Made by a program: the position numbers and the translations under genes
Assembly (NCBI GenBank): GCA_964550845.1
Contig: CAZKAD010000001.1
Coordinates: 21,342 to 85,341, forward strand
Reading direction: 5' to 3'
Source: an uncultured Gammaproteobacteria bacterium
GTDB taxonomy: Bacteria; Patescibacteriota; Patescibacteriia; Magasanikbacterales; UBA922
DNA length: 64,000 nucleotides
Shown: piece by piece, positions 8,769 through 59,589 of the stretch
Numbering within the stretch: the first letter of the stretch is position 1
Layout: each line of letters begins with the position of its first letter
The notes under the pieces: generated by a model
What the model was told of the DNA's origin: nothing
Database searches by the model: none
Seen by the model: only the letters and a program-made list of their open reading frames with translations

Positions 8769-8770
8769 TG

Positions 8771-8845
8771 TTCCGAAAGACTCTTTGAAGTGGTTAAACG
8801 TCCGAAGAACTCTTTGAAGTGGTTAAACGTCCCATAGACCAATTA
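8771..8845 (+). repeat. TTAAAC-hairpin repeat array (29-bp unit, 2 copies plus partial)
   Basis: tccgaaRRactctttgaagtggttaaacg twice. Confidence 0.85.
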
Positions 8846-8880
8846 AAAGAAAAGTCATCTTTTTAAACGAAAACTAAGTG

Positions 8881-9219: not shown

Positions 9220-9236
9220 AAATTGTGAATGGACGA

Positions 9237-9244
9237 AAAATTGA
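9237..9244 (+). promoter_or_regulatory. AAAATTGA promoter-like octamer
   Basis: 32 nt upstream of the RNR R2 ATG 9276. Confidence 0.65.
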
Positions 9245-9275
9245 GTTCCATTTTTCTTCCTCTCAAAAAGAAACC

Positions 9276-10253
9276 ATGCAACTCCTCGCCGAACCAAAAA
9301 ATAAGTTTGATCTTTTTACCATTAAGTACCCAAAGATTGAAGAGTTTGGTAACAAACAACTTTCAATGATGTGGCTTCCAGGGGAAATTTCATATGATAA
9401 AGATCGTCAGCACTTCGAGGAGTTGAAGGATGAAAGAATTCGTCATATTTTGAAGCGCATTATTGGTTTTTTCTTTACCAGTGATGGAATTGTATTCGCC
9501 AATCTTGATGAAAATTTCACAGAGGAGTTCAAGGCTCCAGAAATGAAATATCTTTTTGCAGCGATTTCAGCAATTGAAAGTATTCATGCAAAGTCGTACG
9601 GATTTCAACTCGATTCTCTAATTACAAATGTTGAAGAGAAACAAGAAATTATGGATGCAATTGTAAATATTCCATCGATTCGGAAGATGGCTGAATTTGC
9701 TATTAAATACATGGACCAGAGTCATCCTCTGGTTAATCGAATGGTTGCTTTTCTTTGTATTGAAGGCATTTTCTTTTCATCGCCATTTGCATTTATCTTT
9801 TGGATTCGAAAGTATATGCCGAAGAAATTCCCTGGAATCGTGGCAGCCAACGATTTTATTTCGAGAGATGAGAATCTCCACTGTGAAGCAAATGCTTACG
9901 TAATTAATCTCTTTGCTGAAGAAGGACAACTTGATTTCAAAAATGCTGAAAAAGTATTCAGAGAAGCGACACAAATTGCAATTGAGTTTGCCGAGGATAC
10001 TTTCCCGAATGATCTTCTCGGAATGACCGCAGCAATGATGATTACTCATATTAAATTTGTTGCCAATCGGTGGGCTCAAATTATCGGTTTGAAACGTCTG
10101 TATGATGAGGCTCAAAAAACTCCTTTTACTTTTATGGATAACATTGCTTTGACCAAGAAAGACAATATGTTTGAATCTCAAACTCTAACTGATTATCAAG
10201 GTGCACCAAATATGGAAGTTCACTTTGATTATTCATCAGCAGAGAACTTCTAA
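9276..10253 (+). CDS. ribonucleotide reductase small subunit (R2)
   Basis: ESIHAKSY (E-x2-H-x3-Y radical site), EGIFFSSPFA, ISRDENLHCE, C-terminal ...ENF. First ATG at 9276, 32 nt after AAAATTGA. Confidence 0.93.
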   Translation: MQLLAEPKNKFDLFTIKYPKIEEFGNKQLSMMWLPGEISYDKDRQHFEELKDERIRHILKRIIGFFFTSDGIVFANLDENFTEEFKAPEMKYLFAAISAIESIHAKSYGFQLDSLITNVEEKQEIMDAIVNIPSIRKMAEFAIKYMDQSHPLVNRMVAFLCIEGIFFSSPFAFIFWIRKYMPKKFPGIVAANDFISRDENLHCEANAYVINLFAEEGQLDFKNAEKVFREATQIAIEFAEDTFPNDLLGMTAAMMITHIKFVANRWAQIIGLKRLYDEAQKTPFTFMDNIALTKKDNMFESQTLTDYQGAPNMEVHFDYSSAENF

Positions 10254-11829: not shown

Positions 11830-12678
11830 ATGGTTCCCGCTCCCTTCAAAAGGTACACCATTACTTTTACTGTGGCAACCAACTGGACTATTAATCATGT
11901 TCTTTTCTTCTGGAAACATGACTTTCCAAAAATACAAGACATGTCAAATGTTCCTCTTGGTACAATTCTTTCATTGAAATACAAAGATGAAAATGGCCAT
12001 GTTCATCATCGAGGTCATGGAAAGAGCAATGATAAATGTTTTTCTAATACTACTTCTGTGAATGTTTTTGTTGGAAAAGTTATCAATGTTAAACTTCCAT
12101 CATTCGGTAAGATTCAAATTACCGGATGTCTCGAGGAGAGTCAAGCATATAAGGGAGTTCATGCAATTTGGAAAGCAATTCAAGCAATCGAAGAAAAGAA
12201 TCCTGGTTTTTGTAAATTACCTCCAGATGAACCACCAAAAATTATTTTCAATCCCGTGATGAACAATGTGAGTGTAAATATTGGTTTTGAAGTGAATCGA
12301 CAAAAGTTACAGACATTCTTGTATAGATGCAAAGAAATGGATTTCATTCTTCCGACCAAAGATGAGAGATATGCAGGAACAAAAGTAGAGACAAAAATTC
12401 AAGACATTTCTCATATTCCGCTGGTTAAACAAAGATTTCTCCAAGGAAAATGGTATTCTTCAAATGCGACCATGAATGACTTTCTAGCTCTCTTGAATGC
12501 AAAAAGTCGAAAAGAAGAGAGTCGAAAGACTCATCAACATGTCATTCTTATTTTTCATTCAGGTAAATTGATTTATATTGCTCCTCGATTTGAACTAATG
12601 CCGAAATTCTATGACTTTTTCCTCAAGCTCCTTCATGAGCATCGAAATGAAATTGAAGAAACTTGTCAAGCGCATTAA
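11830..12678 (+). CDS. hypothetical protein, possible TATA-box-binding-protein-like fold
   Basis: Two TBP-repeat-like segments, SFGKIQITGCLEESQAYKGV and LIFHSGKLIYIAPR. Fold assignment is weak. Confidence 0.6.
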   Translation: MVPAPFKRYTITFTVATNWTINHVLFFWKHDFPKIQDMSNVPLGTILSLKYKDENGHVHHRGHGKSNDKCFSNTTSVNVFVGKVINVKLPSFGKIQITGCLEESQAYKGVHAIWKAIQAIEEKNPGFCKLPPDEPPKIIFNPVMNNVSVNIGFEVNRQKLQTFLYRCKEMDFILPTKDERYAGTKVETKIQDISHIPLVKQRFLQGKWYSSNATMNDFLALLNAKSRKEESRKTHQHVILIFHSGKLIYIAPRFELMPKFYDFFLKLLHEHRNEIEETCQAH

Positions 12679-12754
12679 ACTTTAAACCTTAAACTTTAAA
12701 TTCTCCTCAAGATTGATTAAATGTAAAGGATTCTTCTCCTCAAAAGGAAAAGAA

Positions 12755-12850
12755 TTAAACGTCTCTTCAAGACTGGTTAAACGTCTCTTCAAGACTGGTT
12801 AAACGTCTCTTCAAGACTGGTTAAACGTCTCTTCAAGACTGGTTAAACAT
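12755..12850 (+). repeat. TTAAAC-hairpin repeat array (22-bp unit, 4.4 copies)
   Basis: ttaaacgtctcttcaagactgg with TTAAAC at 12755, 12777, 12799, 12821, 12843. Three more TTAAAC at 12675..12700. Confidence 0.95.
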
Positions 12851-13553
12851 TCCCATTCAATTGATTAAACGGAAATTCAATTTCAATCTTCAAGTTCAAT
12901 GTAAGATCAGAAAGATACCATGCTTCTCCTCGTCGATGAATATACGGAGTTTTGAATCTTGGTGTTTCAAATTGGTCGAGAAGATACATATCATGGAATG
13001 GCACTTTTTTCAGTTTAAATAGACTATAATCTTCATTTTGGATCATAAAGATAAATTCTTTGGTTCGTGGAAAGAACCACAAAACTGTCTCTTTGTACTT
13101 ATCAAAAAACTTCCGAGTTTCTTGATCGCAGAGCTTAAATTGAATTGCGCGCGGATTATTTTGAATCCAGTCGGCGACAGAATCGAAGTTTTCGAATTCT
13201 ATCTGAAAACTTTTCGATCCAAGAAATGTCCATCGATTATTCCTCTTTTGGAATGATGGTGCAGGACAATCTGGAAAATTACTACTTGAGATTTGTGCAC
13301 TATAGATTAAATTATCATCACTCGATTCTCGAAGTTTAAACAAAGCTTTATTTTCGGTTCTCTTTTGATCAATCATTAAAATTTGATGCTCATTTTTCGA
13401 CCAGTAAATCTTGAGTGGAGTATAATACCCCTCGACTTTACTCACTTTAAGTTCAATCATTTTAATCATTTCGGAAGGCTTAGCCATCGGGGATGGTTGA
13501 AAGTTGTTCAAATTCCAAATCGAATCAATAAAATTAATCAATTTCTTATTCAT
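12843..13553 (-). CDS. hypothetical protein
   Basis: Start taken at MNKKLINF (13553). The longer extension would overlap the divergent promoter and gene at 13598. Confidence 0.55.
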   Translation of the reverse strand: MNKKLINFIDSIWNLNNFQPSPMAKPSEMIKMIELKVSKVEGYYTPLKIYWSKNEHQILMIDQKRTENKALFKLRESSDDNLIYSAQISSSNFPDCPAPSFQKRNNRWTFLGSKSFQIEFENFDSVADWIQNNPRAIQFKLCDQETRKFFDKYKETVLWFFPRTKEFIFMIQNEDYSLFKLKKVPFHDMYLLDQFETPRFKTPYIHRRGEAWYLSDLTLNLKIEIEFPFNQLNGNV

Positions 13554-13557
13554 CTTA

Positions 13558-13565
13558 AAAATTGA
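13558..13565 (+). promoter_or_regulatory. AAAATTGA promoter-like octamer
   Basis: 33 nt upstream of ATG 13598. Confidence 0.6.
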
Positions 13566-13597
13566 TTGCTTCCGAAGTGTCAAAGAGTAAAAACAAG

Positions 13598-13963
13598 ATG
13601 TGGGGGTTTTATGTTTTGATTGCAAGTATAACTTGTTGTATTCCAACGGCGTTTTGTTGCCTTTCATCAGAAAAAATGAAAAAAATGGAAGACCCGGTTT
13701 TACATGGAGAAGAATGGCGACCAAAATTTTCATCAACTCATGTCGAACAAAGATTATCGCCAATTGCGAATGAGGAAACAGATCGCCAAGAAATTTCATC
13801 AGAAGATGAAATTGAAGTCAAAATTTCAAATCCAACTCCTCCTTCATCACCGGTTCCCCCTTCATCACCGGTTCCCCCTTCATCACCGGTTCCGAGAAAT
13901 CGAACTGATATCAATTGGACGCCAGTCTTCGACGAAGATGATGATTATGAATATCTCGTTTAA
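13598..13963 (+). CDS. Cys-rich N-terminal anchor protein with PPSSPV repeats and acidic tail
   Basis: MWGFYVLIASITCCIPTAFCCL, then 3x PPSSPV. AAAATTGA lies 33 nt upstream. Confidence 0.55.
   Translation: MWGFYVLIASITCCIPTAFCCLSSEKMKKMEDPVLHGEEWRPKFSSTHVEQRLSPIANEETDRQEISSEDEIEVKISNPTPPSSPVPPSSPVPPSSPVPRNRTDINWTPVFDEDDDYEYLV
13841..13894 (+). repeat. 18-bp coding tandem repeat x3 (PPSSPV)
   Basis: ccttcatcaccggttccc x3. Confidence 0.9.
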
Positions 13964-13980
13964 CCAATCCGTCAGGATGT

Positions 13981-14454
13981 TTAATTCTTCCATTCATTAA
14001 TATGTTTCTTACAATATCGATTTGGAAAGGGTAAATAAGAATTGTAGAGACCAAGCTTTTCCGCTTTGGCTAAAAGGCGATTGTTTATCTTTTCAAATTC
14101 AGGAGGATGTTCAGGATCGTCAGGAGGACCAACGAATTGTGAAGGAGTTAAAACGTGAGCTATTTCATGAAGATATGCATAAACAAGAAAATTCTCAAAA
14201 TAAGGAGAATTTTCTTCATTGCCGAGACAAAGATGTATTTCTGATTTACCAAGAGTGTAAGTATCAGATTTACTTGGGTAAACATCAATTTCAGCAATAA
14301 TTGGGTGAACAGGAGAAAGCTTTTCCTTCAATCTTTGAATACGAAGTTTATCATCTGGATGATGTGACTGGAACCGAATCGGCAACACATATTTCTCCTT
14401 CCATTTGTACCAAATTATGAACAACAAAATTACAAAAACGACGATCTCCTTCAT
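13981..14454 (-). CDS. putative Zn-metallopeptidase (HExxH) with N-terminal TM anchor
   Basis: YAYLHEIAHVL motif and N-terminal helix IVVFVILLFIIWY. Confidence 0.55.
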   Translation of the reverse strand: MKEIVVFVILLFIIWYKWKEKYVLPIRFQSHHPDDKLRIQRLKEKLSPVHPIIAEIDVYPSKSDTYTLGKSEIHLCLGNEENSPYFENFLVYAYLHEIAHVLTPSQFVGPPDDPEHPPEFEKINNRLLAKAEKLGLYNSYLPFPNRYCKKHINEWKN

Positions 14455-14764: not shown

Positions 14765-15553
14765 TTATCCATAGCGCAAACAGACATTTTTTATTTCATC
14801 TCCGTTCGATTCGACGACTAGAACATTGTCCCACAATCCAGGAAAGAAAATTATCTCTTTTTGCATTGAGCTATACCATACTGGCCGACTCGTTTCTATA
14901 AGAATAAGAGTAACGTCTTTCTTTTCTTTTGACAAGATTGGCCCAGATTTTGTAATGATATTTTCTGGTATGTGATCATAATTTGCCTGTTTCCGAAGAG
15001 CTTCTTCAAGCTGACTTACTTTCCATGTGGACATTTCAGAAATAAGTTCCATTCGAAATGAAGGATGTTGCTCGCTTTTTGGCTTAGGAATAACGTAATG
15101 GTCGTAAATTCCAGGAATTGCCACTCTCAAAATAAAATTAACTTCCTTTTTATCTACAAATTTGACAATTTTATTCAACCATGATCTATTGATTAATCCT
15201 CCAAAATACTTTTTGTTTGGCTCTCCTATAAACTGTTGGGCTTTATCTTGATGATAAATACTGTAAATACACTGTTTGTCACAGTAGATAAAATCATATT
15301 GTTTATATTTATTACACTCTCGACATTTCCCACATTGCTGGCAACTTTGATCAAATGAAAAAGTAACGCCAAATACACATGAATTTGAATAAAAATTAAA
15401 TGCCCTTGCTTCATGCATATACTGACCAATTGAACCTTTGTTGTCATAGAGTTCCTTCAATTCTGCATAACCAAGCTTGTTTAAAGCAATGAGATTCCGG
15501 TCAGAAAAATATTCATAATCATCAATATCAAATTGATGAAGTGTCACTAACAT
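14765..15553 (-). CDS. hypothetical protein with Cys cluster
   Basis: 262-aa ORF containing CQQCGKCRECNKY...YCDKQC. Terminal hairpin about 14721..14744. Confidence 0.6.
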   Translation of the reverse strand: MLVTLHQFDIDDYEYFSDRNLIALNKLGYAELKELYDNKGSIGQYMHEARAFNFYSNSCVFGVTFSFDQSCQQCGKCRECNKYKQYDFIYCDKQCIYSIYHQDKAQQFIGEPNKKYFGGLINRSWLNKIVKFVDKKEVNFILRVAIPGIYDHYVIPKPKSEQHPSFRMELISEMSTWKVSQLEEALRKQANYDHIPENIITKSGPILSKEKKDVTLILIETSRPVWYSSMQKEIIFFPGLWDNVLVVESNGDEIKNVCLRYG

Positions 15554-15576
15554 ATTTTGTATAGTTAAATCGCGGT

Positions 15577-18880: not shown

Positions 18881-18947
18881 TTAAACATCCTAAAGAACCG
18901 GTTAAACATTCGAAAGACCGGTTAAACATTCGAAAGGAAAATTAAAC
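18881..18947 (+). repeat. TTAAAC-hairpin repeat array (20-21 bp unit, about 3 copies)
   Basis: ttaaacattcgaaagaccgg. Lies between AAAATTGA (18856) and the ATG8 start codon. Confidence 0.9.
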
Positions 18948-21062: not shown

Positions 21063-22580
21063 ATGCAAGCTCTTCTTGATCAAATTGACGACTCAGTTCG
21101 TTCAATGGACGATGATATTCGAGTTTTGGTCGACAACCTTAAACAACTTAATACCGAAGATATTTTAGAAATACATCTTGATATCCTTTCGAAAAAGCTT
21201 TCCAACGTCCCAGACACTTTTGAGTCTCGAGATCAAGTGATTGAAGTTATTCTCGATTCATGTAAATATGCTGAAAAAATGCGGATTTTTAACGGTCATT
21301 CAAACGGAATTTACAACAACGTTTCGTATCCTTATGCAGTCGCAATTCAAACGATATGTTATTTTGACGTCTACGGAGAAATGACCAAACAAAGTTTGCT
21401 TGAATGCATTTCTTTTGTTGCTTTGTTGGAAGAACCTTCTTGTAGTGATGACTTGATCTCTGAATGGTATGAAGATAAAAAAGATATTCATCTCGAACAA
21501 TTTCAATATGCACTTCAATTTGCGTCGAAGATTCGAGACATTTATCTTCCTACACCAGATAGAGAGATTGGTTTATTCACTGGAGATTATCTCTCAGTTG
21601 AAGTTCACCAAAAAATAATCGAATTTCTGAAAAAGAATCGGTTTACTGACCGAGGATCTTATCTTGAATTACTTCCAGAAAAAGATCGTCAGGCATTTCT
21701 TGCTTTTTCGAGGATTACTCCACAATGGATAGCAAAAAGAGCTTTTGTACCTCATCAAGAAGATAAAAGTATGGAACAAGGTTCTCACGCACTTGTTCGA
21801 AGATGGATTGATCCTGAAACTCATGAATATTACGTTGTTAAAACATACGGAATTAATTCTGAATACAACGCTGGTCTTCGAGAACTTCTCGCATTTCATA
21901 TCTTTTCACATCCGAATATTATTCGATGTCATAGCTGGGCAGTGAATGAAGATTTTACTGCACTTCAATTTTTCCTCGAAGATGGAGGTGAAGAAGTGAA
22001 CAATAAATATACCAGTGTAAGATGGATCAAAAAATATGTTCCACAAATTCTTCGTGCTCTTCGTCACATTCATACTCGAGGTTTTGCTTATCGTGACTTA
22101 AAAATGTGTAATCTTGTCTTTCAGAGGGGAAAAGTGAAACTGATTGATCTTGGAATGATGAGAAGAACAGTTACTTTTGGAGGATCGAATGAAATGATGG
22201 CTTTCGGAGTCGGTCCAGCCGAAGTATTTGAAGGCAGAACCATTTATCCTGGTTCGGTTGATATTTGGTCACTTGGAATACTCATGTGTGTGCTGTACAA
22301 AAAGAATCTCGCTATTGGCTATGGTAAATGTAAGATTATGCCTCCTTGGAATAAAAGATCACGAATTCGAGTCTTGTGTATCAAGGATTTTCTTGAGATA
22401 CTGACCAAAGATGAATCCGAAGAACTTGAATCTTTTCAAGAGAAATATCCGGGCTATGGTAATGTCGCCTTTACCATTTCAGAAGTTCGTCATCAAAAAC
22501 TTCTCGCGTTGATTCGAAGATGCTTTCAAAAAGATTCCCCCACTGCTGGAGAACTACTTCGAGATCGATTCTTTCATTAA
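21063..22580 (+). CDS. Ser/Thr protein kinase with about 230-aa unknown N-terminal domain
   Basis: YYVVKTY, FAYRDLKMCNLVF, KLIDLGMM, VDIWSLGILMCVL. Confidence 0.85.
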   Translation: MQALLDQIDDSVRSMDDDIRVLVDNLKQLNTEDILEIHLDILSKKLSNVPDTFESRDQVIEVILDSCKYAEKMRIFNGHSNGIYNNVSYPYAVAIQTICYFDVYGEMTKQSLLECISFVALLEEPSCSDDLISEWYEDKKDIHLEQFQYALQFASKIRDIYLPTPDREIGLFTGDYLSVEVHQKIIEFLKKNRFTDRGSYLELLPEKDRQAFLAFSRITPQWIAKRAFVPHQEDKSMEQGSHALVRRWIDPETHEYYVVKTYGINSEYNAGLRELLAFHIFSHPNIIRCHSWAVNEDFTALQFFLEDGGEEVNNKYTSVRWIKKYVPQILRALRHIHTRGFAYRDLKMCNLVFQRGKVKLIDLGMMRRTVTFGGSNEMMAFGVGPAEVFEGRTIYPGSVDIWSLGILMCVLYKKNLAIGYGKCKIMPPWNKRSRIRVLCIKDFLEILTKDESEELESFQEKYPGYGNVAFTISEVRHQKLLALIRRCFQKDSPTAGELLRDRFFH

Positions 22581-22621
22581 ACGTTCCCGAAGAACTGGTT
22601 AAAAGACTTTCAAAAATAAAG

Positions 22622-22647
22622 TAAACATTCCTCTCGAGGAATGTTTA
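22622..22647. terminator. hairpin between convergent genes
   Basis: taaacattcctc-tc-gaggaatgttta. Confidence 0.6.
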
Positions 22648-23216: not shown

Positions 23217-24566
23217 ATGAAAGCTCGATTTTTAAAGTTGACTCTTATTCCAAATCCGGCAAACTATCGAACAAAATATATCAGTTACATGAGTCAAATC
23301 GCCGTTAAACTGAATATTGAAGATAATATTTTGATTGGTGCAATTGAACTTTTTGATCGACTGCCGTATATTTCCGAAGAATGTTCATTTTTGTTTGCGT
23401 TTGGATGTTTTTATTTAGCTGTACTTCTTTACGAAGGGGGCAACGACATTCGAGAAAAATTGCCTCGATGTTGCAAAGGTGTTTATGAAATTGGTGATTT
23501 GACCAAGATAGTAGATACTTTGGTGGTTGAAATCATGACATGGTTACCTGCACCTATTTATCCAAATAGCTTTTCAAGAGCCTATCATATCGTTACTGGA
23601 AAGCATTTAACGAAAGAAGAAGAACGCTCACTCGTTTTGATTTATCTTAAACAATCAAGTACTCTTGAATCAACTGAATTGAAAACTTTAGCTCTTCCTG
23701 AAAATCAACAAAAGAGAATCAAAGAATTTATGAATCAACCAAGTAAAAATTCTTTGTTTCAAGAGTATCATCCGGATTTTCAAAAAGGCAATTTGCTTGG
23801 ATCAGGTGAATGGGGTCGTGTTGTTGCTCATCCAAATGAATGGGGGAAAGTGATTAAAAAATCACTCAACAAAGAAGAAGCATATGAAACTTTTGTCCGA
23901 GAGATTGCACTGCTCTCTTCAATTAGTCACCCTCACATTATTAAAATGCACGGATGGAGTTACAATGAAGGCAAATTTTATCTCATTCTCGATAAAGGAA
24001 TACCAATTAAATTAACTTCAAGAACAATTCAACAAGAGGGATCTAAACTTCTTCGAGCTCTTGATCATCTTCATTCACAAGGATTTATTCATCGCGACTT
24101 GAAACCAGATAATATATTGTATGTGAATGAAAATATTACTCTTTGTGATTTCGGGATTACTAGAACTCAAGCAAGACGAGGATTGACTGGTATGAGAGTG
24201 CCAGCTGCAAATATCCCTCCCGAAATGCTTAAACAAAGAAAATACAATTACGATTCTGCAGTCGATATTTGGGCTTTCGGATTGTTAGTTGCCTGGATGG
24301 TTAAAGATTTTATTTTTAGTGATATTGTCGAAGATAAGGATAGTCATCATAAAATTCAAATGCAAATAATTGGATTCAAGACTGGTTACAAATTTCCAGA
24401 TAAACAACACACTCCGAGATATTCCCTTCATGACATTGAGAACGAAGACGCAAGAGACTTAATTGAAAGATGTCTGACTGATTGTCCACAACAAAGACCG
24501 AAAGCGAAAGATTTAATTAATCATCCTTTTTTAACCAGTCCCGAAGGGACGTTTAAGGCAAAGTAA
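23217..24566 (+). CDS. Ser/Thr protein kinase with cyclin-box-like N-terminal domain
   Basis: LLGSGEWGRVV, KVIKK, FIHRDLKPDNILY, LCDFGITR, VDIWAFGLLVAW. N-terminus YISYMSQIAVKLNIEDNILIGAIELFDRL...FAFGCFYLAVLLYEG. Confidence 0.85.
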   Translation: MKARFLKLTLIPNPANYRTKYISYMSQIAVKLNIEDNILIGAIELFDRLPYISEECSFLFAFGCFYLAVLLYEGGNDIREKLPRCCKGVYEIGDLTKIVDTLVVEIMTWLPAPIYPNSFSRAYHIVTGKHLTKEEERSLVLIYLKQSSTLESTELKTLALPENQQKRIKEFMNQPSKNSLFQEYHPDFQKGNLLGSGEWGRVVAHPNEWGKVIKKSLNKEEAYETFVREIALLSSISHPHIIKMHGWSYNEGKFYLILDKGIPIKLTSRTIQQEGSKLLRALDHLHSQGFIHRDLKPDNILYVNENITLCDFGITRTQARRGLTGMRVPAANIPPEMLKQRKYNYDSAVDIWAFGLLVAWMVKDFIFSDIVEDKDSHHKIQMQIIGFKTGYKFPDKQHTPRYSLHDIENEDARDLIERCLTDCPQQRPKAKDLINHPFLTSPEGTFKAK

Positions 24567-33309: not shown

Positions 33310-34415
33310 ATGAACTTCCTCATTACACACGGTCCTTGTCTTGATGGTGAAACTTGCGCTTTGTTTCTCAAACAATGGGCAGATGAGCAAAAAGAAACAT
33401 TGCAAACGGTATTTTGTTTCGCTGGGCAACTTTCAGTTGATTTGATTAAGAGGAAAATGCCTGAGAATACATGTCGAATCTTTATTTGCGATTTGACTGT
33501 GAATCAAGAAACACTCGAATATCTTAATAATCTGAACAAAGAAGTCTGGATCATCGATCATCATCGATCATCATCGATCATCATCAAAAACTTTCCAATG
33601 TTCCTGAAAAAATTACTTATCTTCATCGAGATCGTTGTGCGGCGTGGATTGTTTGGGAAAAATTTCGATCGAATTCTGAAGCAGTCACTCCAATTCTTCG
33701 GGGAGTTCAGCCTGAACTTCTTCAATATATCGACGAACAAGACCGAGGTCTTCATCACCGTCCTTATTTGAAAGAAATCATTTCTGCAGTTCATTTTGAG
33801 AAGAAGAGGATTGGACTTGAAAGAGTGTTTCAAGAATTTTCTGTCGATCGATATATTCAAATCGGAACGATTCTTGCTGAATATCGAAAAACCCAGGTCG
33901 ATGAGATGATTAAATATGGCTACAAACGAAAGTTTAATTGGAAGGGAAAAGAATATAACGTCTTGTTGATGAGTGGAGATCGAACTCTCCGAAGTGAGGG
34001 TCTCGAAGAATCAAAGGCTGACATTACCATGTTTTACACTTACGATGCAGCAACGAATGAATTTTGGGTTGCTTGTCGAAGTCAAGAACTTGATCTTTTG
34101 CCTATCATTTCAAATATCACCTGGTGTAGCGGGAATGAATTTCGAAAAGGTGGAGGGCATCCTAAAGCTTGCGGTTTTACCGTCAATCAAGCAACCACCT
34201 TCGAATTCATCACAATGATGGAAGGATCGGTGTCGCCTGCAAGTTATCATCAACCGAGTCAGACAGGATATAAAATTGAGCTACAGGGACTTGTCCCGCA
34301 AAAGTTTTGCTTTCCAATTTTCTTCCATAGTTGGATTAACGATTTGCTCAAAGCAATTGAGAAATTTGATCAAGTAATTTCTGAAGGGACTTCGAGGGTT
34401 GACGAAATTTATTAA
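33310..34415 (+). pseudogene. DHH/DHHA1 phosphoesterase disrupted by a frameshift in a 3x 10-bp repeat
   Basis: Motif I THGPCLDGETCA and motif III IIDHH lie in frame 1. Continuation ...QKLSNVPEKITYLHRDRCAAW... and DHHA1 GGGHPKACGF lie in the frame of ORF 33768..34415. The junction is at GATCATCATC x3. Confidence 0.75.
33556..33585 (+). repeat. 10-bp tandem repeat x3 (GATCATCATC, encodes DHH)
   Basis: Exact copies at 33556, 33566, 33576. Confidence 0.95.
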
Positions 34416-34525
34416 ACGTCTCTTCGAGACTAGTTAAACATCGAGACGATTGGTTAAACGTTCCGGAGGAACTGATTAAACGTTCCGGAGGAACTGATTA
34501 AACATTCCGGAGGAACTGATTAAAA
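34412..34525 (+). repeat. TTAAAC-hairpin repeat array (22-bp unit, 5 copies)
   Basis: TTAAAC at 34412, 34434, 34454, 34476, 34498. Units ttaaacgttccggaggaactga. Confidence 0.95.
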
Positions 34526-34528
34526 ATC

Positions 34529-42936: not shown

Positions 42937-43571
42937 ATGTCACTCATTAAAGATGTCGATCTTTCAGAGATTATATCTTTGAAAATGGAACTTAAATTTG
43001 GTACCCCTGAAAAATTAATCCGTTTCATTCAACAAAATAAAGGCCAAAATTTTCAATGCAAATTGACCTTTAGCCGTAGTAAAACTGACACATTTGAGGC
43101 TGCTGTCGAAGTTCGCAAACTTTCGAAAATTTTCGTTGTTGATATGCATGTCGAGATGAAAGAAGATCAATCTATAACCATTCCGGATATAGATGAAATC
43201 AACATTAATTTTTCATATTTATCCGAAAAACCAGATATCGATTGCCCGGGAGCAAAAGTATATTTATACTGCGGTGGTTCAATTACTGATCAAATCGAGA
43301 TAGAAACTTTAACTATTTTACTTAATTCAACTTCAAAGCTGAGAAATCTTCCTTTCTTTTGCGTTCCATGGAACAGTATTGACAGAGAAATCTTCCTTTC
43401 TTTTGCGTTCCATGGAACAGTATTGACAGAGAGCTCAAACTCAACTTTCTGATTCGATTGATGAGACTTGTTTGTTGTGGTGTTTGTGAAGAGGATAATG
43501 TATGGCAATTCTTTTTGACTCAAGAATTGTATGATCCGAGATTACTTAGTGGCATTGCAGCGTTTAATTAA
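42937..43571 (+). pseudogene. LYDPR-box family member, type II, frameshifted by a 44-bp tandem duplication
   Basis: Reads ...TSKLRNLPFFCVPWNSIDRE, then duplicated unit 43341..43384 / 43385..43428. Removing one copy restores ...LKLNFLIRLMRLVCCGVCEEDNVWQFFLTQELYDPRLLSGIAAFN, with stop at 43569..43571. Confidence 0.75.
43341..43428 (+). repeat. 44-bp exact tandem duplication
   Basis: gagaaatcttcctttcttttgcgttccatggaacagtattgaca x2. Confidence 0.95.
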
Positions 43572-43620
43572 TTTAGAGAGTCTCGAAGAGACGTTTAACT
43601 AATTCAGAGAGTCAAGAGAA
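43562..43620 (-). repeat. TTAAAC-hairpin repeat, reverse orientation (about 31-bp unit, 2 copies)
   Basis: gtttaaYtaattYagagagtc twice, with gtctc-gaa-gagac stem. Confidence 0.7.
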
Positions 43621-43719
43621 AGTAGCTAATTCAAAATATTCATCTCCTTTCGAAGAGATAAAAAGTGATTAATTCTTTTGCGTATAAAAGAATTAAAATA
43701 AAAGAATTAAAATTAAAAG

Positions 43720-44403
43720 ATGGACAAACCTTTTAACCAGTCTCAAGAGACGTTTAATCCAATTGAGATTTTTCGTATTGAATCTGACACTTTGATTAAG
43801 AAGCTGGGAAAAGGTCCACGTGGAAATATATTGAATGAATATTTTGAAGTGCCTAAAAAATTTACTCAAGGAATGTTGTACTTCTATTTTTCGCATCATG
43901 TATTTGACCACTTTGAAGAAAAGCTCGACACAAAAATTATCTTCCCTCGAAATCAGATAAAAAATTTTCAACTCTTTCTTAAGCAAAATTACCCGGATAC
44001 TTCATCATTTCGATTTCTCTATTATTTACATCAAATACATCCAGAACATTGTATTATTGGTATCGAAAATGGACAAGGTGTCCATCATTTTTTCAAACAT
44101 GACTATGGATTGTACGGAGATATGTATGAAAACTACTATCATTTTCTCGAAATCATTGTTCGATTGATTGGTGAAAAAGTTGATCATGGTTATGATCCAC
44201 TTGGAGAATTGGTTGCCAATGGATTGATCGACAATGGACAATTTTATGCCTTTCTCACAAAAGAATTGTATGATCCTCGTGTTTTAATTATGATTCATCA
44301 ATTTGCCTTCGATCCAAATAAAACTCGATATTTGTCTGCTTCCGGAGAAGTTATGGAAGAAGAAATTAAACAGCTTCAACAAGATGAAAATAATGAAGAT
44401 TAA
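43720..44403 (+). CDS. LYDPR-box family protein, type III
   Basis: FNPIEIFRI...YFYFS...NYPDT...GEKVDHGYDPLGELVANGL...FLTKELYDPRVLIMIHQFAFDP. Confidence 0.8.
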   Translation: MDKPFNQSQETFNPIEIFRIESDTLIKKLGKGPRGNILNEYFEVPKKFTQGMLYFYFSHHVFDHFEEKLDTKIIFPRNQIKNFQLFLKQNYPDTSSFRFLYYLHQIHPEHCIIGIENGQGVHHFFKHDYGLYGDMYENYYHFLEIIVRLIGEKVDHGYDPLGELVANGLIDNGQFYAFLTKELYDPRVLIMIHQFAFDPNKTRYLSASGEVMEEEIKQLQQDENNED

Positions 44404-45248: not shown

Positions 45249-45992
45249 TTAGTCTTCATTATCACTATTATCACTATTCGCCATGGCCAAAATAGCCGCG
45301 TACTCTGGACCAGGGGCGAGATGCTCATCACGATAATTATTAAAATCTTCTTCAAATTCCTCACCAAAGGCATCAAAATCTTTGATTTTGTTCGGATCGA
45401 AGGCAAATTGATGAATCAAAATCAGAATTCTCGGGTCATACAATTCTCGAGTCAAAAATGTATGAAAACAACTATTTCCTTCCGAATCATTCAGTCCTGA
45501 AGCAACCAATTCTCCAAGTGGATCGTAGCCGTGATCAACTTTTTCACCGAGCAAGCGAACAAAAATTTCAAGAAGATGATGATGACAGTCTACTGTATCT
45601 CCATACATTCCATAGTCATGAGTGTAATATCTCGTAATTCCTTGATTATTTTCAAGTAAAATAAGACAATATTTTGGATTATCACCATGAAGACGTATCA
45701 AATAACGAAATGCTGAAGTATCAGGGTAATTCTGTTGAAGAAAAAGTTTAAAATTTTCATACTGGCTTTGAGTGAAGACTATTTCACTATTTTCGGATTT
45801 GTGTTTGCTACGCTTAAATATATGATGAGAAAAATAAAAGTACAATGTCCCTTGAGAAATCTTTTTTGATAATTCGAAATGTTCATTTAGCGCATTACCA
45901 CGATGACATTTCCCCAGCTTTTCAATCAAGATTTGCGCGTCAATTCGAAAGATTTCAATTGGATTAAATGTCGCAAGGGACTGGTTAAACAT
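45249..45992 (-). CDS. LYDPR-box family protein, type III
   Basis: FNPIEIFRI...GEKVDHGYDPLGELVASGL...FLTRELYDPRILILIHQFAFDP. Start at ATG 45992, because the GTG at 46055 lies in hairpin 46051..46078. Confidence 0.8.
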   Translation of the reverse strand: MFNQSLATFNPIEIFRIDAQILIEKLGKCHRGNALNEHFELSKKISQGTLYFYFSHHIFKRSKHKSENSEIVFTQSQYENFKLFLQQNYPDTSAFRYLIRLHGDNPKYCLILLENNQGITRYYTHDYGMYGDTVDCHHHLLEIFVRLLGEKVDHGYDPLGELVASGLNDSEGNSCFHTFLTRELYDPRILILIHQFAFDPNKIKDFDAFGEEFEEDFNNYRDEHLAPGPEYAAILAMANSDNSDNED

Positions 45993-50960: not shown

Positions 50961-51533
50961 ATGAAATTCTATGCAGTTGCAGTCGGTCGTGTACCAGGGA
51001 TTTATACATCTTGGCCTGAAGCGCAAAAACAAATTCATGGCTATTCAGGAGCGAAATATAAGTCTTTTTCTGAGAAATCTCAAGCCGAGACCTATATGAA
51101 ACTTTTTGTTCATCGAGATGAAGAGAAAAAAGAAGATCGCCACATTATCTACACCGATGGTAGCGCGGTAAATGGAACTGCTGGAGCTGCTGCTGTTTCG
51201 CTGGAGAAGAAATTGGTTTACTACGGAAGACCATCCGGTGAACAGACGAATAATCGAGGAGAACTTTCCGGCATTCGTCTTGCTCTTTGTTTTGAAGGTT
51301 CTTTATTGATCTATTCTGACTCAGAATATGCAATTGGTGTAATCACTGGAAGTCTTGCTGCAAAGAAGAATCTTGATTTAATCGAGATTATTCGAAAGGA
51401 AATGGCCGGTCGAGATATCGTTTTTCGCAAAGTGCTTGCTCATTCTGGAGTTGAAGGGAATGAATTGGCCGATCATTACGCGGATAAAGGACGATCTTTA
51501 TCTGAAGGTACAATTGTACAAGAAAAACTTTAA
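50961..51533 (+). CDS. RNase H1 with N-terminal hybrid-binding domain
   Basis: FYAVAVGRVPGIYTSWPEAQKQIHGYSGAKYKSF. Catalytic IYTDGS, NNRGELSGI, IYSDSEY, GNELADHYA. Confidence 0.9.
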   Translation: MKFYAVAVGRVPGIYTSWPEAQKQIHGYSGAKYKSFSEKSQAETYMKLFVHRDEEKKEDRHIIYTDGSAVNGTAGAAAVSLEKKLVYYGRPSGEQTNNRGELSGIRLALCFEGSLLIYSDSEYAIGVITGSLAAKKNLDLIEIIRKEMAGRDIVFRKVLAHSGVEGNELADHYADKGRSLSEGTIVQEKL

Positions 51534-51573
51534 CCAACCCTTTAGACGTTCAAACGTCTCTCGGACTGGTTAA
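51529..51573. repeat. nested palindrome of the TTAAAC family between convergent genes
   Basis: ttaaccaaccc...agacgttcaaacgtct...ggactggttaa. Confidence 0.7.
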
Positions 51574-52055
51574 ATACGATTATCTTTTCGAAGATCTTGT
51601 TCGAACTTTTCGAGTTGTCGGCAAAAATATAAATTCGGAGAAGCAACTTCGCGCTTAGATTTAATTGATTTTAATATCTCCTGAAATGGTTTCTTTTCCG
51701 ACCACATTAAATAACCTGCTAATATTGATGCAGATCGAGAAATTCCTTGTGCACAATGAATTAATACCGCTTCTCCATTTTTAAGATGTTGATCAATAAT
51801 TGGAATAATTTTTGGAAGAATAGTTAGAATGTCTTGTTGATGATCATCATTCATACTCAGAAAGTAATGAGTAAGATTTTGATGGCCAAAAAGTTTTGAT
51901 TCTACTTCAATGGCACAATTAACTACAACTGTAATGTTCAACTGTTGCAAGAGCCAAATTGAATTTGCCATCTTGGCATTACCAAGGAAAAGATTTTTTC
52001 TTATTTCTGCACCAGCAAATCTTGCCGGTTGAGCAAATACTGCGCGGTTGAGCAT
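51570..52055 (-). CDS. dual-specificity protein phosphatase
   Basis: VLIHCAQGISRSASILAGYLM. Start at MLNRAVF (52055), because the 52166 extension reads through repeat 52113..52152. Confidence 0.88.
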   Translation of the reverse strand: MLNRAVFAQPARFAGAEIRKNLFLGNAKMANSIWLLQQLNITVVVNCAIEVESKLFGHQNLTHYFLSMNDDHQQDILTILPKIIPIIDQHLKNGEAVLIHCAQGISRSASILAGYLMWSEKKPFQEILKSIKSKREVASPNLYFCRQLEKFEQDLRKDNRI

Positions 52056-52112
52056 ATTTTTCTTTCTTCGAGAAGAAAGAAAATGTTTTAAATATGACAA
52101 CGAGTTTTTAAG

Positions 52113-52152
52113 GACGTTTAACCACTTCAGAGAGTCCTTCGGGACGTTTAAA
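52113..52152 (-). repeat. TTAAAC-hairpin repeat, reverse orientation (2 copies)
   Basis: gacgtttaac...gtccttcgggacgtttaaa. The second copy contains the stop of gene 52148..53866. Confidence 0.8.
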
Positions 52153-53934: not shown

Positions 53935-53998
53935 TTAAACGTCCCGAAGGACTGATTAAACGTCCAAAGGACTGATTAAACGTCCCGAAGGACTGATT
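53935..53998 (+). repeat. TTAAAC-hairpin repeat array (20-21 bp unit, 3 copies)
   Basis: ttaaacgtcccgaaggactga x3, immediately upstream of AAAATTGA 54001 and the RPB1 start. Confidence 0.95.
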
Positions 53999-54000
53999 AA

Positions 54001-54008
54001 AAAATTGA
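54001..54008 (+). promoter_or_regulatory. AAAATTGA promoter-like octamer
   Basis: 43 nt upstream of the RPB1 ATG 54051. Confidence 0.65.
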
Positions 54009-57746: not shown

Positions 57747-59537
57747 ATGGAACAAAAATATTCCCTTGAGGCTAAATATTCATTTGAAGGTGTTTCTCGT
57801 GATGAAATTTTGAAGGCGTACAAAGATAAGCTGGCCGAACAGCCAGCTGAATCGAAGATACCTCTCTTTTATCATCAATTGTACAATATCCGACAAATGC
57901 GCGAGCGAGAAAAGTCACTCTGCATCCCACTGAGTAATGATGACACTGTTCAATCGAGAGTTGGAATTTTGGGAGATCCTCCTGGAACCGGCAAGACGAA
58001 GACTGCAATTTTTGCAATCAAACAGTCTGGTCTCGATTGGCCAAAAACACCCTTCTACACGCAAACAATCCAAGTTTGTTCAAATATTGATGGCAACATC
58101 CGCATTGAACGAAAAGAAAGTTTCATTCGAACTCAGACGACCTGTATTATTACCAATGCGAGTATTTTGAATCAGTGGTTGGAAGAGTTGGTTCTTGCGA
58201 ATATCTCTTACAAAGCGATTCGCAATCATGCTGATTTTCAAACAGATGAAGTGTTTCGATATGAAGTGGTTGTCTGCGTTGATACGATGTATAACGATTT
58301 TGCTGCAAAGTTTCACACTCATGCTTTCAAAGCAATGTACTTCGATGAAATGGATAGCACCTATATTCCAAACATGGAAAGAATGGTGGCTGGATTTTAC
58401 TGGCTCATTTCAGCAACTTTTTCAACTGTGCTTGAGAAGGTCCTTCGTTCGAGAAATCTTCATTTTATGAAGCGATTGTTCAATGAAATTTTGAGCGATA
58501 CTTATTCACAAGAAGATTTGCTAAATGCAATTACGATTCTCTCTCCCGAAGATCTTCGAGATTTGAATCCATTGCCAGATTGTGCATACGTTTTTAACTA
58601 TGAAAATGAAGGATATCATCTTACTCAAGCTCTTTATCCTTTCTTGGACAAAGAGATCATTTCTATGATTGAAAGTGGGGATGTTTGGAATGTACCACAA
58701 AAAATTATTCGAGATACCGAACTTGAAAACTTGTATTCGGTATTGGTCGAAAAAATCGGTCAACAACTTCTTGAAACTGAAGAGAAGATGGCAAAGTATG
58801 CTGGTAAGAGCCTTGCCAAAAAGACCTACGAAGAATGGGTCAAACGAAATCAAATTGTAATCCGAAAGAGAAATCTTCTCTCCGAACTTATCCAGAAAGC
58901 AATGGAAAAACCATGCCCGACTTGTGGTGGGATTATGATTGAACCTCAATTGGCTCTTTGTTGCTATGCCAATGTTTGCTTGAAATGTGCAAAAGGAATG
59001 CACAAAGAAGACTGTAAGATGTGCAAGAAGAAATTCGTTCCCATCCCATTTTTTGAAGCAAAAGAAGATAAAGAAAAATATTGCCCATGTCAAGAAGGTG
59101 TATCAGAGGATGCAAATCTATCGACCAATATTCACCAACCGAAAACCAAGTTGGATCAGGTTCGAGAAATCTTAAAGCAAGGACAGAAAATTTTAATTTT
59201 TGCTTCCTCCAATGGATCGTTTGAAACTTTGACCAAGACGATTGTAGAGATTGGAAAGAAATCTCTTCTCTTCACTGGATCAAATGCAACTCGTGAAAAG
59301 TTACTCTCACAATTTAAATCTGGTAAAGTCGATTGTCTGATCATGAAAGATCAGAAAAATAGTGCTGGAATGAATCTCCAGTGTACGACAGATATTATCA
59401 TTTGGAATTACATGCCACCAGCGTTTGAAAGACAAGCTATCGGTCGAGCTGTTCGACCTGGTCTTGATCATGATGTCAAAATTCACCGATTCAGTCTCCA
59501 AGTCAAGTTCTTTAACGAGTCCCTTGAGGACGTTTAA
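57747..59537 (+). CDS. SNF2-family helicase with embedded RING finger (RAD5/RAD16-like architecture)
   Basis: GDPPGTGKT, MYFDEMDS, RING CPTCGG...CCYANVCLKC...CKMCKK, motif V/VI AGMNLQ...ERQAIGRAVRPG. Confidence 0.85.
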   Translation: MEQKYSLEAKYSFEGVSRDEILKAYKDKLAEQPAESKIPLFYHQLYNIRQMREREKSLCIPLSNDDTVQSRVGILGDPPGTGKTKTAIFAIKQSGLDWPKTPFYTQTIQVCSNIDGNIRIERKESFIRTQTTCIITNASILNQWLEELVLANISYKAIRNHADFQTDEVFRYEVVVCVDTMYNDFAAKFHTHAFKAMYFDEMDSTYIPNMERMVAGFYWLISATFSTVLEKVLRSRNLHFMKRLFNEILSDTYSQEDLLNAITILSPEDLRDLNPLPDCAYVFNYENEGYHLTQALYPFLDKEIISMIESGDVWNVPQKIIRDTELENLYSVLVEKIGQQLLETEEKMAKYAGKSLAKKTYEEWVKRNQIVIRKRNLLSELIQKAMEKPCPTCGGIMIEPQLALCCYANVCLKCAKGMHKEDCKMCKKKFVPIPFFEAKEDKEKYCPCQEGVSEDANLSTNIHQPKTKLDQVREILKQGQKILIFASSNGSFETLTKTIVEIGKKSLLFTGSNATREKLLSQFKSGKVDCLIMKDQKNSAGMNLQCTTDIIIWNYMPPAFERQAIGRAVRPGLDHDVKIHRFSLQVKFFNESLEDV

Positions 59538-59576
59538 CGAGTCCCTTGAGGACGTTTAACGAGTCCCTCGAGGACG
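59511..59576 (-). repeat. TTAAAC-hairpin repeat array, reverse orientation (22-bp unit, 3 copies)
   Basis: tttaacgagtcccttgaggacg x3. Overlaps the last codons and stop of the SNF2 gene. Confidence 0.95.
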
Positions 59577-59589
59577 TAGAAAGAAACTC

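Follow-up and report, generated by a model that had tools for sequence, protein, structure and literature searches.

A 64,000-nucleotide stretch of metagenomic DNA (positions 21,342 to 85,341 of contig CAZKAD010000001.1, assembly GCA_964550845.1; hereafter the window) carries, at at least 13 loci and in both orientations, a repeat unit in which the word TTAAAC is followed by a miniature hairpin. The reading we lean towards, with slightly better than even confidence, is that these units form a lineage-specific family of ultra-short palindromic repeats that proliferates without autonomous machinery of its own, and that they are not transcription terminators. The units lie almost only where insertion is tolerated, namely in 3' untranslated regions (UTRs) abutting stop codons, in 5' leaders and at in-frame positions within genes. 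They have inserted at positions where orthologues or paralogues have none, and their arrays grow and shrink from strain to strain by blocks of identical units. Their stems keep pairing via compensatory changes while their loops drift.

Structure and abundance of the repeat unit

The consensus unit, (T)G(R)-TTAAAC-[G/A]TCYC-loop-GRGA[C/T], joins a constant linker, (T)GR-TTAAAC, to a variable hairpin with a G/C-clamped stem of 4-5 bp and a free loop. A long sub-family of 29-31 bp follows the scheme TTAAAC-hairpin-TCTYTGAAGTGG, with the extension placed 3' of the hairpin. All units together amount to ~843 bp; they account for 1.3% of the window and for roughly one in seven of its intergenic bases. 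TTAAAC occurs 82 times in the window versus 52.8 ± 7.8 times in shuffled sequences, and TTAAACRTYY 29 times versus an expectation of 3.0 ± 2.0; 26 of these 29 sites are intergenic or lie at most 3 nt from a gene edge, although such DNA makes up 9.2% of the window. TTAAAC followed immediately by a perfect 4-bp stem (loop of 3-5 nt) was found 22 times, at 13 independent loci, whereas 200 first-order Markov simulations yielded 0.99 ± 0.93 occurrences, with a maximum of 4.

Tandem Repeats Finder delimited arrays at 12755-12848 (22 bp x4.3, 100% identical), 34454-34524 (22 bp x3.2), 53933-54001 (21 bp x3.3), 59511-59577 (22 bp x3.0, unit on the minus strand), 18881-18936 (20 bp x2.7) and 8772-8832 (29 bp x2.1). 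Together with the excess of stem occurrences, these arrays establish that the TTAAAC-plus-hairpin repeat described in an initial annotation of the window, made from sequence alone, is real. That annotation had listed at least ten tandem arrays of 20-22 bp units. Most of the listed loci are indeed arrays, but the one at 22577 is a single unit and the one at 51529 consists of one unit and an inverted, decayed partner; the repeats at 8771, 43562 and 52113 belong to the longer 29-31 bp sub-family, and stems at 18881 are largely lost. The list also lacked the repeats at 12675-12700, 13958-13984 (minus strand), 24529-24556 (minus strand), 43731-43757 (minus strand) and 45964-45990 (plus strand), the last three of which lie inside coding sequence. 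In the 5.4 kb past the right end of the window (L021), zero units were found.

Gene content and expression signals of the window

The window is densely coding, with 64 open reading frames (ORFs) covering 91% of the sequence, and its GC content ranges from 33 to 42%. Among the genes identified by Pfam searches are hallmarks of nucleocytoplasmic large DNA viruses, namely PolB (family-B DNA polymerase), mRNA capping enzyme, RNA polymerase Rpb1, ribonucleotide reductase small subunit, FEN1/XPG, a number of kinases, and a kinesin with a Hint/intein domain. The core of the Mimiviridae early-promoter octamer, AAATTGA (AAAATTGA promoters), is located 16-107 nt 5' of the ATG in 26 of the 64 genes, and a long A/T-rich palindrome, defined by at least 8 paired bases with at most one mismatch, is present in 38 of the 48 intergenic regions that hold a gene 3' end. 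This layout of AAAATTGA promoters and long hairpins after genes matches the Mimiviridae 'hairpin rule' (PMC4402537). Promoters, terminator-like hairpins and gene content jointly suggest that the source of the window is an uncultured Mimiviridae-like giant virus. The nearest relatives are all metagenomic sequences, and PolB is 100% identical to one database protein. A gathering-threshold search against Rfam returned no match in the window, and a tRNA scan detected none.

Entry of units into new sites

Near-identical variants of the unit recur at distant loci. The 12-nt TCTYTGAAGTGG extension is present at 8769 and, on the minus strand, at 43562 and 52106; GTCCCGAAGGAC is found at both 52151 (minus) and 53935 (plus), and GTCTCTTCGAGAC at both 34412 (plus) and 43598 (minus). 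Since the extension is shared, and since hairpins at loci far apart and on opposite strands are identical, these variants cannot have arisen independently. Units are flanked by TTAAA on both sides, with adjacent units sharing it, and the 4-5-bp stem is their only inverted repeat. In 9 of 13 cases within the clade of close strains that includes the window (clade A), internal array borders read TTAAAC and the last border reads TTAAAA, exactly the pattern expected if a founder TTAAA|C-hairpin-TGG-TTAAA|A had been duplicated.

Filled and empty sites were also identified within genes. The M23 peptidase gene of strain L010 harbors two in-frame 21-bp units, ATT-AAA-C(GTCCTTCAGAACTGGTTAAAC)x2, encoding KRPSELVKRPSELV, residues that precede the conserved (K/T)xGEIIG strand of the peptidase. 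The units are also present in one close homologue (P0122), and exactly these 14 residues are missing in six orthologues, including L085, for which the DNA was read. In the window, the paralogues 43720-44403 and 45249-45992 (60% identical) carry an antisense unit as codons 2-9 (FNQSxxTFN), while the paralogue 44488-45189 has no unit and reads straight through (MTQFTPID...). Likewise, a unit supplies a 10-residue tail after the kinase domain (HPFL end) of gene 23217-24566. Coding insertions have a 21-bp period or a stop-free frame, as purifying selection on random insertions would leave.

These observations bear directly on whether the repeats could be local minisatellites, in which a hairpin formed independently at each locus next to a TTAAA stop context and was then multiplied by slippage, with no copying between loci. 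The window is rich in unrelated tandem repeats, identity within arrays reaches 100%, T-TAA-A is a common stop context, and a more distant relative (L018, clade C) has many unrelated 10-12-bp arrays at gene borders, all of which such a process would accommodate. It would not, however, account for one linker, one stem consensus and even one 12-nt extension recurring across numerous loci, both strands and two clades, or for 13 loci where chance predicts about one. Slippage can neither create a family-type unit de novo in the M23 gene nor generate an inverted unit beside a direct one, as seen at the 51534 locus. The shared sub-family extension and the coding insertion largely refute a purely local origin, which we regard as very improbable.

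Variation between strains and conservation between clades

Comparison with strain L007, whose nucleotide identity to the window is ~92-94%, revealed extensive differences in array content. The four perfect units at 12755 are missing in L007, where a decayed 22-bp periodicity is found, and at the position of the hairpin-less array at 12675 this strain has only TTAAAAACGTTAAAA. The 13958-13984 locus holds one unit in the window versus three identical copies in L007 (11915-11957), and 3' of the kinesin gene L007 has a unit at a position that unrelated sequence occupies in the window. L007 also retains, at 6783-6860 and with substitutions, the 29-bp array found at 8769. At the junction between the RNase H and phosphatase genes (51529), the single unit and inverted partner of the window contrast with nine identical units and two further ones in L015; these nine differ from the resident junction unit of the window and are one base away from its 12755 unit. 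Strains have 0, 0, 1 or 3 extra units, with differing loops, at the 52106 locus, and L016 has an array with different loops at the 53935 position.

These copy-number differences indicate that the arrays are hypervariable and that the loci at which fresh blocks of identical units arise differ from one strain to another. As in variable-number tandem repeats (VNTRs), the units are arranged head-to-tail and their copy number varies among strains; beyond an ordinary VNTR, one unit family occupies at least 13 loci. The strain differences, the near-identical variants at distant loci on both strands, the in-frame insertion in the M23 gene and the difference between paralogues support the suggestion in the initial annotation of a proliferating miniature repeat. 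Several independent short-read contigs end at repeats (L013 at its 5' end, L016 at both ends and L017 at its 3' end), those of L013 and L016 stopping inside arrays and that of L017 within 20 bp of a unit. Some assemblies thus appear to be interrupted by the arrays, whose true length or polymorphism may exceed what was assembled.

The same repeat family is present in a syntenic sister clade (clade B; 76% PolB and 68% Rpb1 identity). Clade B contains a 17-bp unit, TTAAAC-ATCC-TTCG-GGG(T), at 4307 (x4.1), 14614 and 18273 in L012 and at 8958 in L001, and a further bin, CALMMZ01, has many arrays, of up to seven copies, of the 22-bp unit TTAAAC-ATCTC-NNN-GAGAT-TGG. We take this bin to be clade-B-like, given its origin in the same sample series and its abundance of AAAATTGA; none of the CALMMZ01 loci overlaps L001, L011, L012 or the window. 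CALMMZ01 (GTDB record, SRR5676435_bin.113) was deposited as an 'uncultured bacterium' metagenome-assembled genome and appears to be a sister-clade giant virus, or to contain one, with TTAAAC-hairpin arrays on at least six of its contigs (L026, L029, L045, L061, L070 and L082). The TGG-TTAAAC linker is identical in both clades, whereas the closing pair is A-T in clade B (ATCTC/GAGAT, ATCC/GGGT) and mostly G-C in clade A. An equal linker with a clade-specific closing pair points to homogeneity within genomes and divergence between them, that is, to concerted evolution.

Clades A and B share the position and orientation of two arrays, both at convergent junctions: the one at 51529 (the 17-bp x4.1 array in clade B) and the one at 59511 (14614-14656 in L012). 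With about one fifth of intergenic regions occupied, we roughly estimate the probability that two junctions are shared by chance at ~0.1-0.2, and the coincidence is therefore weak evidence of function. The 53935 array upstream of Rpb1 is absent from clade B (L012 7018-7069).

Beyond clade B, the family is absent from relatives at 52% (L018) and 41% (L019) PolB identity. Numerous perfect tandem arrays of 10-12-bp units lie on or close to gene borders in L018 (JGI 3300060288; e.g. 9173-9266, 9331-9369, 15482-15578 and 22410-22582), possibly a different repeat family in the same niche. Scans of IMG/VR with two-unit patterns and with Rpb1 returned no relatives. In a GTDB scan, the many matches to the degenerate pattern in Veillonella and other bacteria were judged unrelated, as they were single matches in conserved genes.

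The conservation of the linker raises the possibility that the arrays are binding sites for a viral or host DNA-binding protein recognizing TGGTTAAAC, acting as enhancer, insulator, origin or architectural element in the manner of baculovirus hrs (homologous regions) or the family-A repeats of EhV-86, with copy number drifting by slippage. In keeping with such a role, the 9-nt linker is invariant in two clades while the intervening sequence changes, the 20-22 bp period approximates two helical turns, orientation independence fits recognition at the DNA level, and the arrays are dispersed every few kb, some of them in divergent promoter regions and one fused to the Rpb1 AAAATTGA. Periods of 17, 29-31 and 7 bp also occur, however, and binding sites do not need covarying stems. 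The arrays are dispensable between strains, the Rpb1-upstream array is missing in clade B, and the in-frame coding and 5'-leader insertions look accidental. No candidate binder was identified; the match of gene 11830-12678 (+), which adjoins the largest array, to the TATA-binding protein family (PF00352) is weak (E 0.0017, below the curated cut-off). We consider a protein-binding role, which the initial annotation had also proposed, possible but unlikely.

Stem pairing and its possible causes

To assess covariation we used 27 distinct clade-A units, with the arms set by position alone as the first 4 bases after TTAAAC and the 4 bases before the 3-nt spacer. Standard pairs fill 86% of cells, versus 77 ± 1.6% with 3' arms shuffled, and double-sided stem changes number 13, versus 4.7 in shuffles; neither value was reached in any of 500 shuffles. 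Compensatory changes were detected at all four stem pairs, and slid registers, used as a control, score far lower than the true stem register. Stem pairing is maintained, and the covariation noted in the initial annotation is confirmed as an observation. Loops, for their part, differ freely between units while the hairpin is kept; in two adjacent L010 units (3904 and 3927) the stem is equal and the loop is flipped (TTGA vs TCAA), which is typical of DNA palindromes. An attempt to align the stems of clades A and B jointly was given up, as the register of the 17-bp units of clade B differs.

The step from covariation to structural selection, taken in the same annotation, is less secure, as covariation alone fits equally well an RNA function, a DNA-level hairpin requirement for propagation, or palindrome-correcting template switching. 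Of the cells without a Watson-Crick pair, six would be G.U pairs on the TTAAAC strand, 12 would be G.U pairs on the opposite strand and three are true mismatches; the unpaired cells hence bear no strand signature and provide no support for selection on sense RNA specifically. Predicted folds of whole-array RNAs gave z-scores between -0.2 and -3.4 relative to shuffles, with sense strands at -0.2 to -1.7, not above shuffles, and minus-strand RNAs faring better, at -2.2 to -3.4. Being weak and inconsistent, these z-scores were set aside as evidence of an RNA element.

Placement relative to genes and canonical hairpins

Six genes of the window end in the TAA of a sense TTAAAC, and four or five end in the TAA of GTT-TAA-C, corresponding to an antisense unit. 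In convergent pairs, both stops can fall in the edge units of one array (12676/12843 and 51531/51570). TTAAAC contains a TAA on both strands, so that repetition every 20 or 22 bp brings stops into each of the three frames of either strand. Most arrays are positioned between the stop codon and the canonical long hairpin, which is kept in 6 of the 9 array-bearing 3' intergenic regions versus 38 of 48 overall, indicating that the arrays are additions and not replacements. Units are clearly distinct from these single long hairpins, as had been annotated: their stems are 4-5 bp long and repeated, with a conserved TGG-TTAAAC linker and stem consensus, versus single, locus-specific, A/T-rich palindromes of 8-15 bp. 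On this sequence evidence, the canonical hairpins, and not the units, are the predicted 3'-end signal of virus transcripts.

Arrays also occur in 5' leaders and inside ORFs. As described in the initial annotation, two arrays of the window are located in divergent promoter regions, the one at 53935 directly 5' of the Rpb1 promoter and the one at 18881 between AAAATTGA (~18858) and the ATG (18949) of an ATG8-like gene, raising promoter-ATG spacing from ~26 to 92 nt; the latter array probably lies in the 5' leader of this gene. In the clade-B-like contig L082, seven sense units with perfect 5-bp stems are inserted between AAAATTGA and the ATG; the promoter lies 226 nt from the ATG, a distance that would shrink to a typical 72 nt if the units were removed. 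The orientation of the repeat had been annotated as usually sense, which holds in part: where neighboring genes are co-directional, the balance is ~4-5 sense to 3 antisense. A role for TTAAA as part of the early promoter was rejected, since TTAA is not consistently found 5' of AAAATTGA.

The location of most arrays within 3' UTRs, and the six genes ending in a sense TTAAAC, lend some appeal to the idea that the units are accessory elements for RNA 3'-end formation or stability that operate within the Mimiviridae 'hairpin rule', in which mini-hairpins or nested pairings aid the viral RNase III and poly(A) machinery or protect transcripts, with TTAAAC as part of the signal. Mimiviridae 3'-end processing recognizes hairpin structure and not sequence (PMC4402537), the stems of the units co-vary, and arrays of identical palindromes can form nested, interrupted long helices, with the minus-strand folds as the most stable ones. 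Three of the nine array-bearing regions, moreover, have no canonical hairpin of at least 8 bp, and two junction arrays are conserved between clades. Nevertheless, perfect-stem sense arrays in the L082 5' leader, the 5'-leader array at 18881, units within coding sequence and mixed orientation are difficult to reconcile with an element of transcript 3' ends, as are stems far below the canonical length, sense folds no more stable than shuffles and pairing exceptions with no sense-RNA signature. Close strains, in addition, gain and lose arrays with the genes intact. The same placement, orientation and mismatch data, and the retention of the long hairpin in most array-bearing regions, do not support the termination array envisaged in the initial annotation, and we consider an accessory role in RNA to be doubtful.

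A proposed copying model and the search for a mobilizing enzyme

Proliferation of the units would most likely proceed by copying of a unit from an existing array into a TTAAA site, often a TAA stop codon in the common T-TAA-A context. As this context is frequent, stop codons would be the permissive targets met most often in 3' UTRs as short as these. Copying might be performed by an enzyme that recognizes the linker and the hairpin, or might take place through microhomology-mediated template switching on the ~9-nt linker, and the new unit would then be flanked by TTAAA on both sides. A hairpin located between direct TTAAA(C) repeats could stall replication, and slippage or unequal recombination would subsequently build arrays. 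Stems would stay paired either because hairpin-forming units are preferentially copied or because quasi-palindrome correction restores pairing, and both processes would mimic structural selection. Among the side effects of the repeats are TAA stops on both strands (in all frames at 20- or 22-bp periods), remodelled gene ends, longer UTRs and broken assemblies.

Several observations weigh against proliferation as the explanation. No HUH/Y1, DDE or piggyBac-type domain was detected by Pfam in the 64 window genes, and we know of no transposition mechanism that handles an element of 16-25 nt. The sole recombinase in the window, an IS607-like serine recombinase (36661-37644), is unconnected to the motif; it was dropped as a candidate mobilizer because its flanks have no TTAAAC units. 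The conservation of linker and stem across clades with 68-76% protein identity would also be explained by a conserved protein-binding site, and the two junction arrays with conserved position and orientation could mean function. In the M23 gene, the empty L085 allele reads ATTACAT, and not TTAAA, at the insertion site, so that target-site duplication is suggestive but not proven. Finally, gene coordinates are our own ORF calls, with uncertain start codons.

A far more specific version of the proliferation model would see in the units the smallest mobile elements with a specific target so far observed in a virus of eukaryotes, each consisting of a ~16-nt cargo and a duplicated TTAAA. They would be actively mobilized by a predicted virus enzyme that recognizes TGGTTAAAC beside a DNA hairpin, following the logic of REP/RAYT (repetitive extragenic palindromes and their transposases) or IS200/IS605 systems, would prefer TAA stops and would continually rewrite gene ends and UTRs. 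We put this version forward as speculation with a small chance of being correct.

Individual repeat loci

The first long-family array (8769..8848, plus strand) starts directly after the TAA stop of a kinase-like gene (7116-8768) and comprises 29-bp units, TTAAAC-GTCCGAAGAAC-TCTTTGAAGTGG, with a last short unit ending in TTAAAA. It is followed by the hairpin-less 7-bp array (12675..12700, plus; TTAAACN x3.7), the first TAA of which is the stop of gene 11830-12678. The largest array (12755..12886, plus) is made up of four perfect 22-bp units, TTAAAC-GTCTCTTCAAGAC-TGG, and two decayed units that constitute the 3' end of the minus-strand gene 12843-13799, with the TTA of TTAAAC as its stop. A single minus-strand unit (13958..13984), TTAAAC-ATCCTGACGGAT-TGG-TTAAAC, provides with its first TAA the stop of gene 13981-14454, and three decayed 20-21-bp units (18881..18947, plus) lie in the divergent intergenic region described above.

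The single unit at 22577..22604 (plus), TTAAAC-GTTCCCGAAGAAC-TGG-TTAAAA, contributes the TAA stop of a kinase gene (21063-22580) and has a canonical terminator-type hairpin downstream (22622-22647), while the antisense unit at 24529..24556 (minus) falls within the last 12 codons of the kinase gene 23217-24566. Five plus-strand units with three different hairpins (34412..34525) have as their first TAA the stop of gene 33906-34415, end in TTAAAA and are followed by a canonical 14-bp hairpin (34527-34560). Two 31-bp units of the long family (43562..43621, minus) are antisense to the upstream plus-strand gene 42880-43452. A single antisense unit with intact stem (43731..43757, minus) covers codons 4-12 of gene 43720-44403 (protein MDKPFNQSQETFNP...), and a decayed copy of this coding-embedded unit (45964..45990, plus) is located at the N-terminus of the paralogue 45249-45992 (minus), whose protein begins MFNQSLATFNP.

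Between the convergent RNase H and phosphatase genes, the unit TTCAAAC-GTCTCTCGGAC-TGG-TTAAA is accompanied by an inverted decayed unit (51529..51575, plus), and the stop codons of both genes fall within TTAA cores. A 30-bp long-family unit and a truncated one, TTAAAC-GTCC-TTAAAA (52106..52151, minus), have as their first TAA the stop of a Rho_N-domain gene (52148-53866) and are followed by a canonical hairpin (52058-52083). Three 20-21-bp units (53935..54001, plus) occupy the divergent region 5' of Rpb1, where the final TTAAA merges into the AAAATTGA promoter. The Rho_N (SAP-like) gene is flanked by inverted units with an identical 19-nt core, TTAAACGTCCCGAAGGACT (52151 minus, 53935 plus), in a composite-like arrangement. 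The last array consists of three 22-bp units, TTAAAC-GTCCTCAAGGGAC-TCG (59511..59577, minus), contains the TAA of the plus-strand helicase gene 57747-59537 and has a canonical hairpin beside it (59590-59615).

Other features of the window

The IS607-like serine recombinase (Resolvase domain; weak NCBIfam IS607 match) opens a segment (36661-39319) that continues with a 478-aa ORF for which no Pfam, NCBIfam or PDB match was found; a 94-bp x2.1 tandem repeat (39036-39234) overlaps the 3' end of this ORF. Recombinase and ORF may together form an IS607-type element, the ORF being a divergent TnpB/Fanzor-like partner.

The kinesin motor gene (16275-18797, minus) is split by its Hint/intein domain, with PF00225 on either side of PF05203, and the same layout recurs in L007 and in L018, the relative with 52% PolB identity; an intein in a viral kinesin is unusual. 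The neighboring ORF 18949-19383 (plus) encodes an ATG8/LC3-like ubiquitin-fold protein (PF02991, E 2e-16), and its homolog also adjoins the kinesin gene in L018 (19051-19485). PolB (2824-5781, plus; proteins P0002/P0120) has no intein in the window, while a 95%-identical PolB of 1465 aa from other samples contains intein PF14890, making this intein a presence/absence polymorphism inside the lineage. The Rpb1 ORF (54051-56987, plus; 978 aa) ends early in domain 5, at profile positions 1-64 of 267, and Rpb1 of L018 (1-1974) consists of two neighboring ORFs. The largest RNA polymerase subunit of the lineage may therefore be split or truncated.

A tandem multigene family (39320-45992) comprises ~9 paralogues of 190-255 aa with pairwise identities of 30-60% and no Pfam domain, and a ~40-aa motif of the family is common to three further ORFs (331-1422, 37757-39193 and 62976-63767). 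Some of the paralogues have near-identical terminator-type hairpins (ttctctcttctcgaagagagg at 41461 and 42248). Unrelated tandem repeats were identified at 46892-47116, 42177-42241, 13837-13893, 32062-32165, 43341-43432 and 46098-46193; they include 9-mer GAATTGAAT arrays beside a promoter, a 9-mer x7 array over a stop codon, and 18-, 39-, 44- and 21-bp repeats. Their number suggests that the genome is generally slippage-prone.

Relation to known repeat systems and significance

The literature searched contained no paper linking TTAAAC to Mimiviridae, and only analogues of such a family, none of them in Mimiviridae-like viruses. The nearest functional analogue, by analogy and with no sequence relationship, is the group of mobile G+C clusters of yeast mitochondria (e.g. 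GC42; Weiller et al. 1989; Wu & Hao 2015, PMC4478555). According to PMC4478555, which cites Weiller 1989, G+C clusters occur as 'single elements and tandem arrays', vary among strains and have a mobilizing mechanism unresolved since 1989. Both families consist of short G/C-clamped hairpins, most of them intergenic, that lie between copies of a short putative target duplication in compact genomes rich in A+T; GC42 likewise combines a conserved hairpin with a variable loop, single and tandem occurrence, and presence/absence and copy-number variation among strains. The same traits mark the repeats studied here, which form G/C hairpins in an AT-rich genome, occur as singles and as arrays sharing TTAAA(C), show strain insertion polymorphism and have filled and empty M23 sites. 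They differ in size (16-25 nt versus ~30-45 nt for G+C clusters) and in linker (TGG-TTAAAC versus AG or TAG), and also in residing in a giant-virus genome and in being tied to TAA stop codons. Sponge mitochondrial genomes contain similar repetitive hairpin-forming elements (PMC2800124).

Bacterial repetitive extragenic palindromes and interspersed mosaic elements (REP/BIME; overview in PMC3184786) are comparable as imperfect palindromes of 20-40 nt with an adjacent conserved motif that are extragenic, often placed after stops and clustered, and in which the palindrome is lineage-specific and the flanking motif conserved. The units share the palindrome-plus-motif organization, the concentration at intergenic and gene-edge sites (26 of 29) and the formation of arrays. 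BIME clusters, however, usually alternate in orientation, whereas the arrays described here are strictly head-to-tail and share a linker, in a eukaryotic virus; and REP/BIME are mobilized by RAYT, a Y1 HUH protein of a type not encoded among the window genes.

In giant viruses, the MITE-like (miniature inverted-repeat transposable element) M1/M2 repeats of Pithovirus (Rigou et al. 2023, PMC10664404) and the 'submariner' MITEs of Pandoravirus (PMC4495683) are also palindromic repeats that colonize intergenic DNA, with adjacent units sharing a putative target duplication, with no viral transposase found and with content that differs between related viruses. Those elements measure ~140 nt or more, have long terminal inverted repeats and a dinucleotide target duplication, and make up as much as one quarter of the genome, whereas the units of the window, at 17-31 bp, fall below the ~50-800 bp size range of MITEs, represent ~1.3% of the sequence and abut stop codons; its 64 genes include no DDE or piggyBac-type transposase. 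The 'hairpin rule' palindromes of Mimiviridae (Byrne et al. 2009; Priet et al. 2015, PMC4402537) resemble the units in being hairpins 3' of ORFs, in genomes with AAAATTGA promoters, whose stem sequence is free if pairing is kept. The units do not belong to this class: the canonical hairpins of this genome are single, A/T-rich and locus-specific, the units are G/C-clamped, repeated and joined by a fixed word, and units are in addition found in 5' leaders and coding sequence. Baculovirus hrs and the family-A repeats of EhV-86, too, are dispersed intergenic arrays of short, often palindromic units with isolate-variable copy number. Nevertheless, hr units are ~70 bp long, contain a 30-bp palindrome and serve as IE1-bound origins or enhancers, and EhV family-A repeats are promoter nonamers upstream of genes; neither kind of function is indicated for the units of the window, and most arrays here are at 3' ends.

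For annotation, the units matter because they create ORF ends and starts; for assembly, because some contigs break at arrays; and for strain typing, because the arrays are natural VNTR markers. They also counsel caution, in that covarying hairpins beside stop codons in a 'hairpin rule' virus are not automatically terminators. A clear 9-nt linker and filled and empty sites at the strain level offer a sharper handle on the mobility of mini-hairpins, though the virus is uncultured. If our reading is true, the REP/GC-cluster class of short, proliferating hairpin selfish DNA would extend to a giant virus, and the spread of these units would explain the fast turnover of intergenic regions and gene termini in this lineage.

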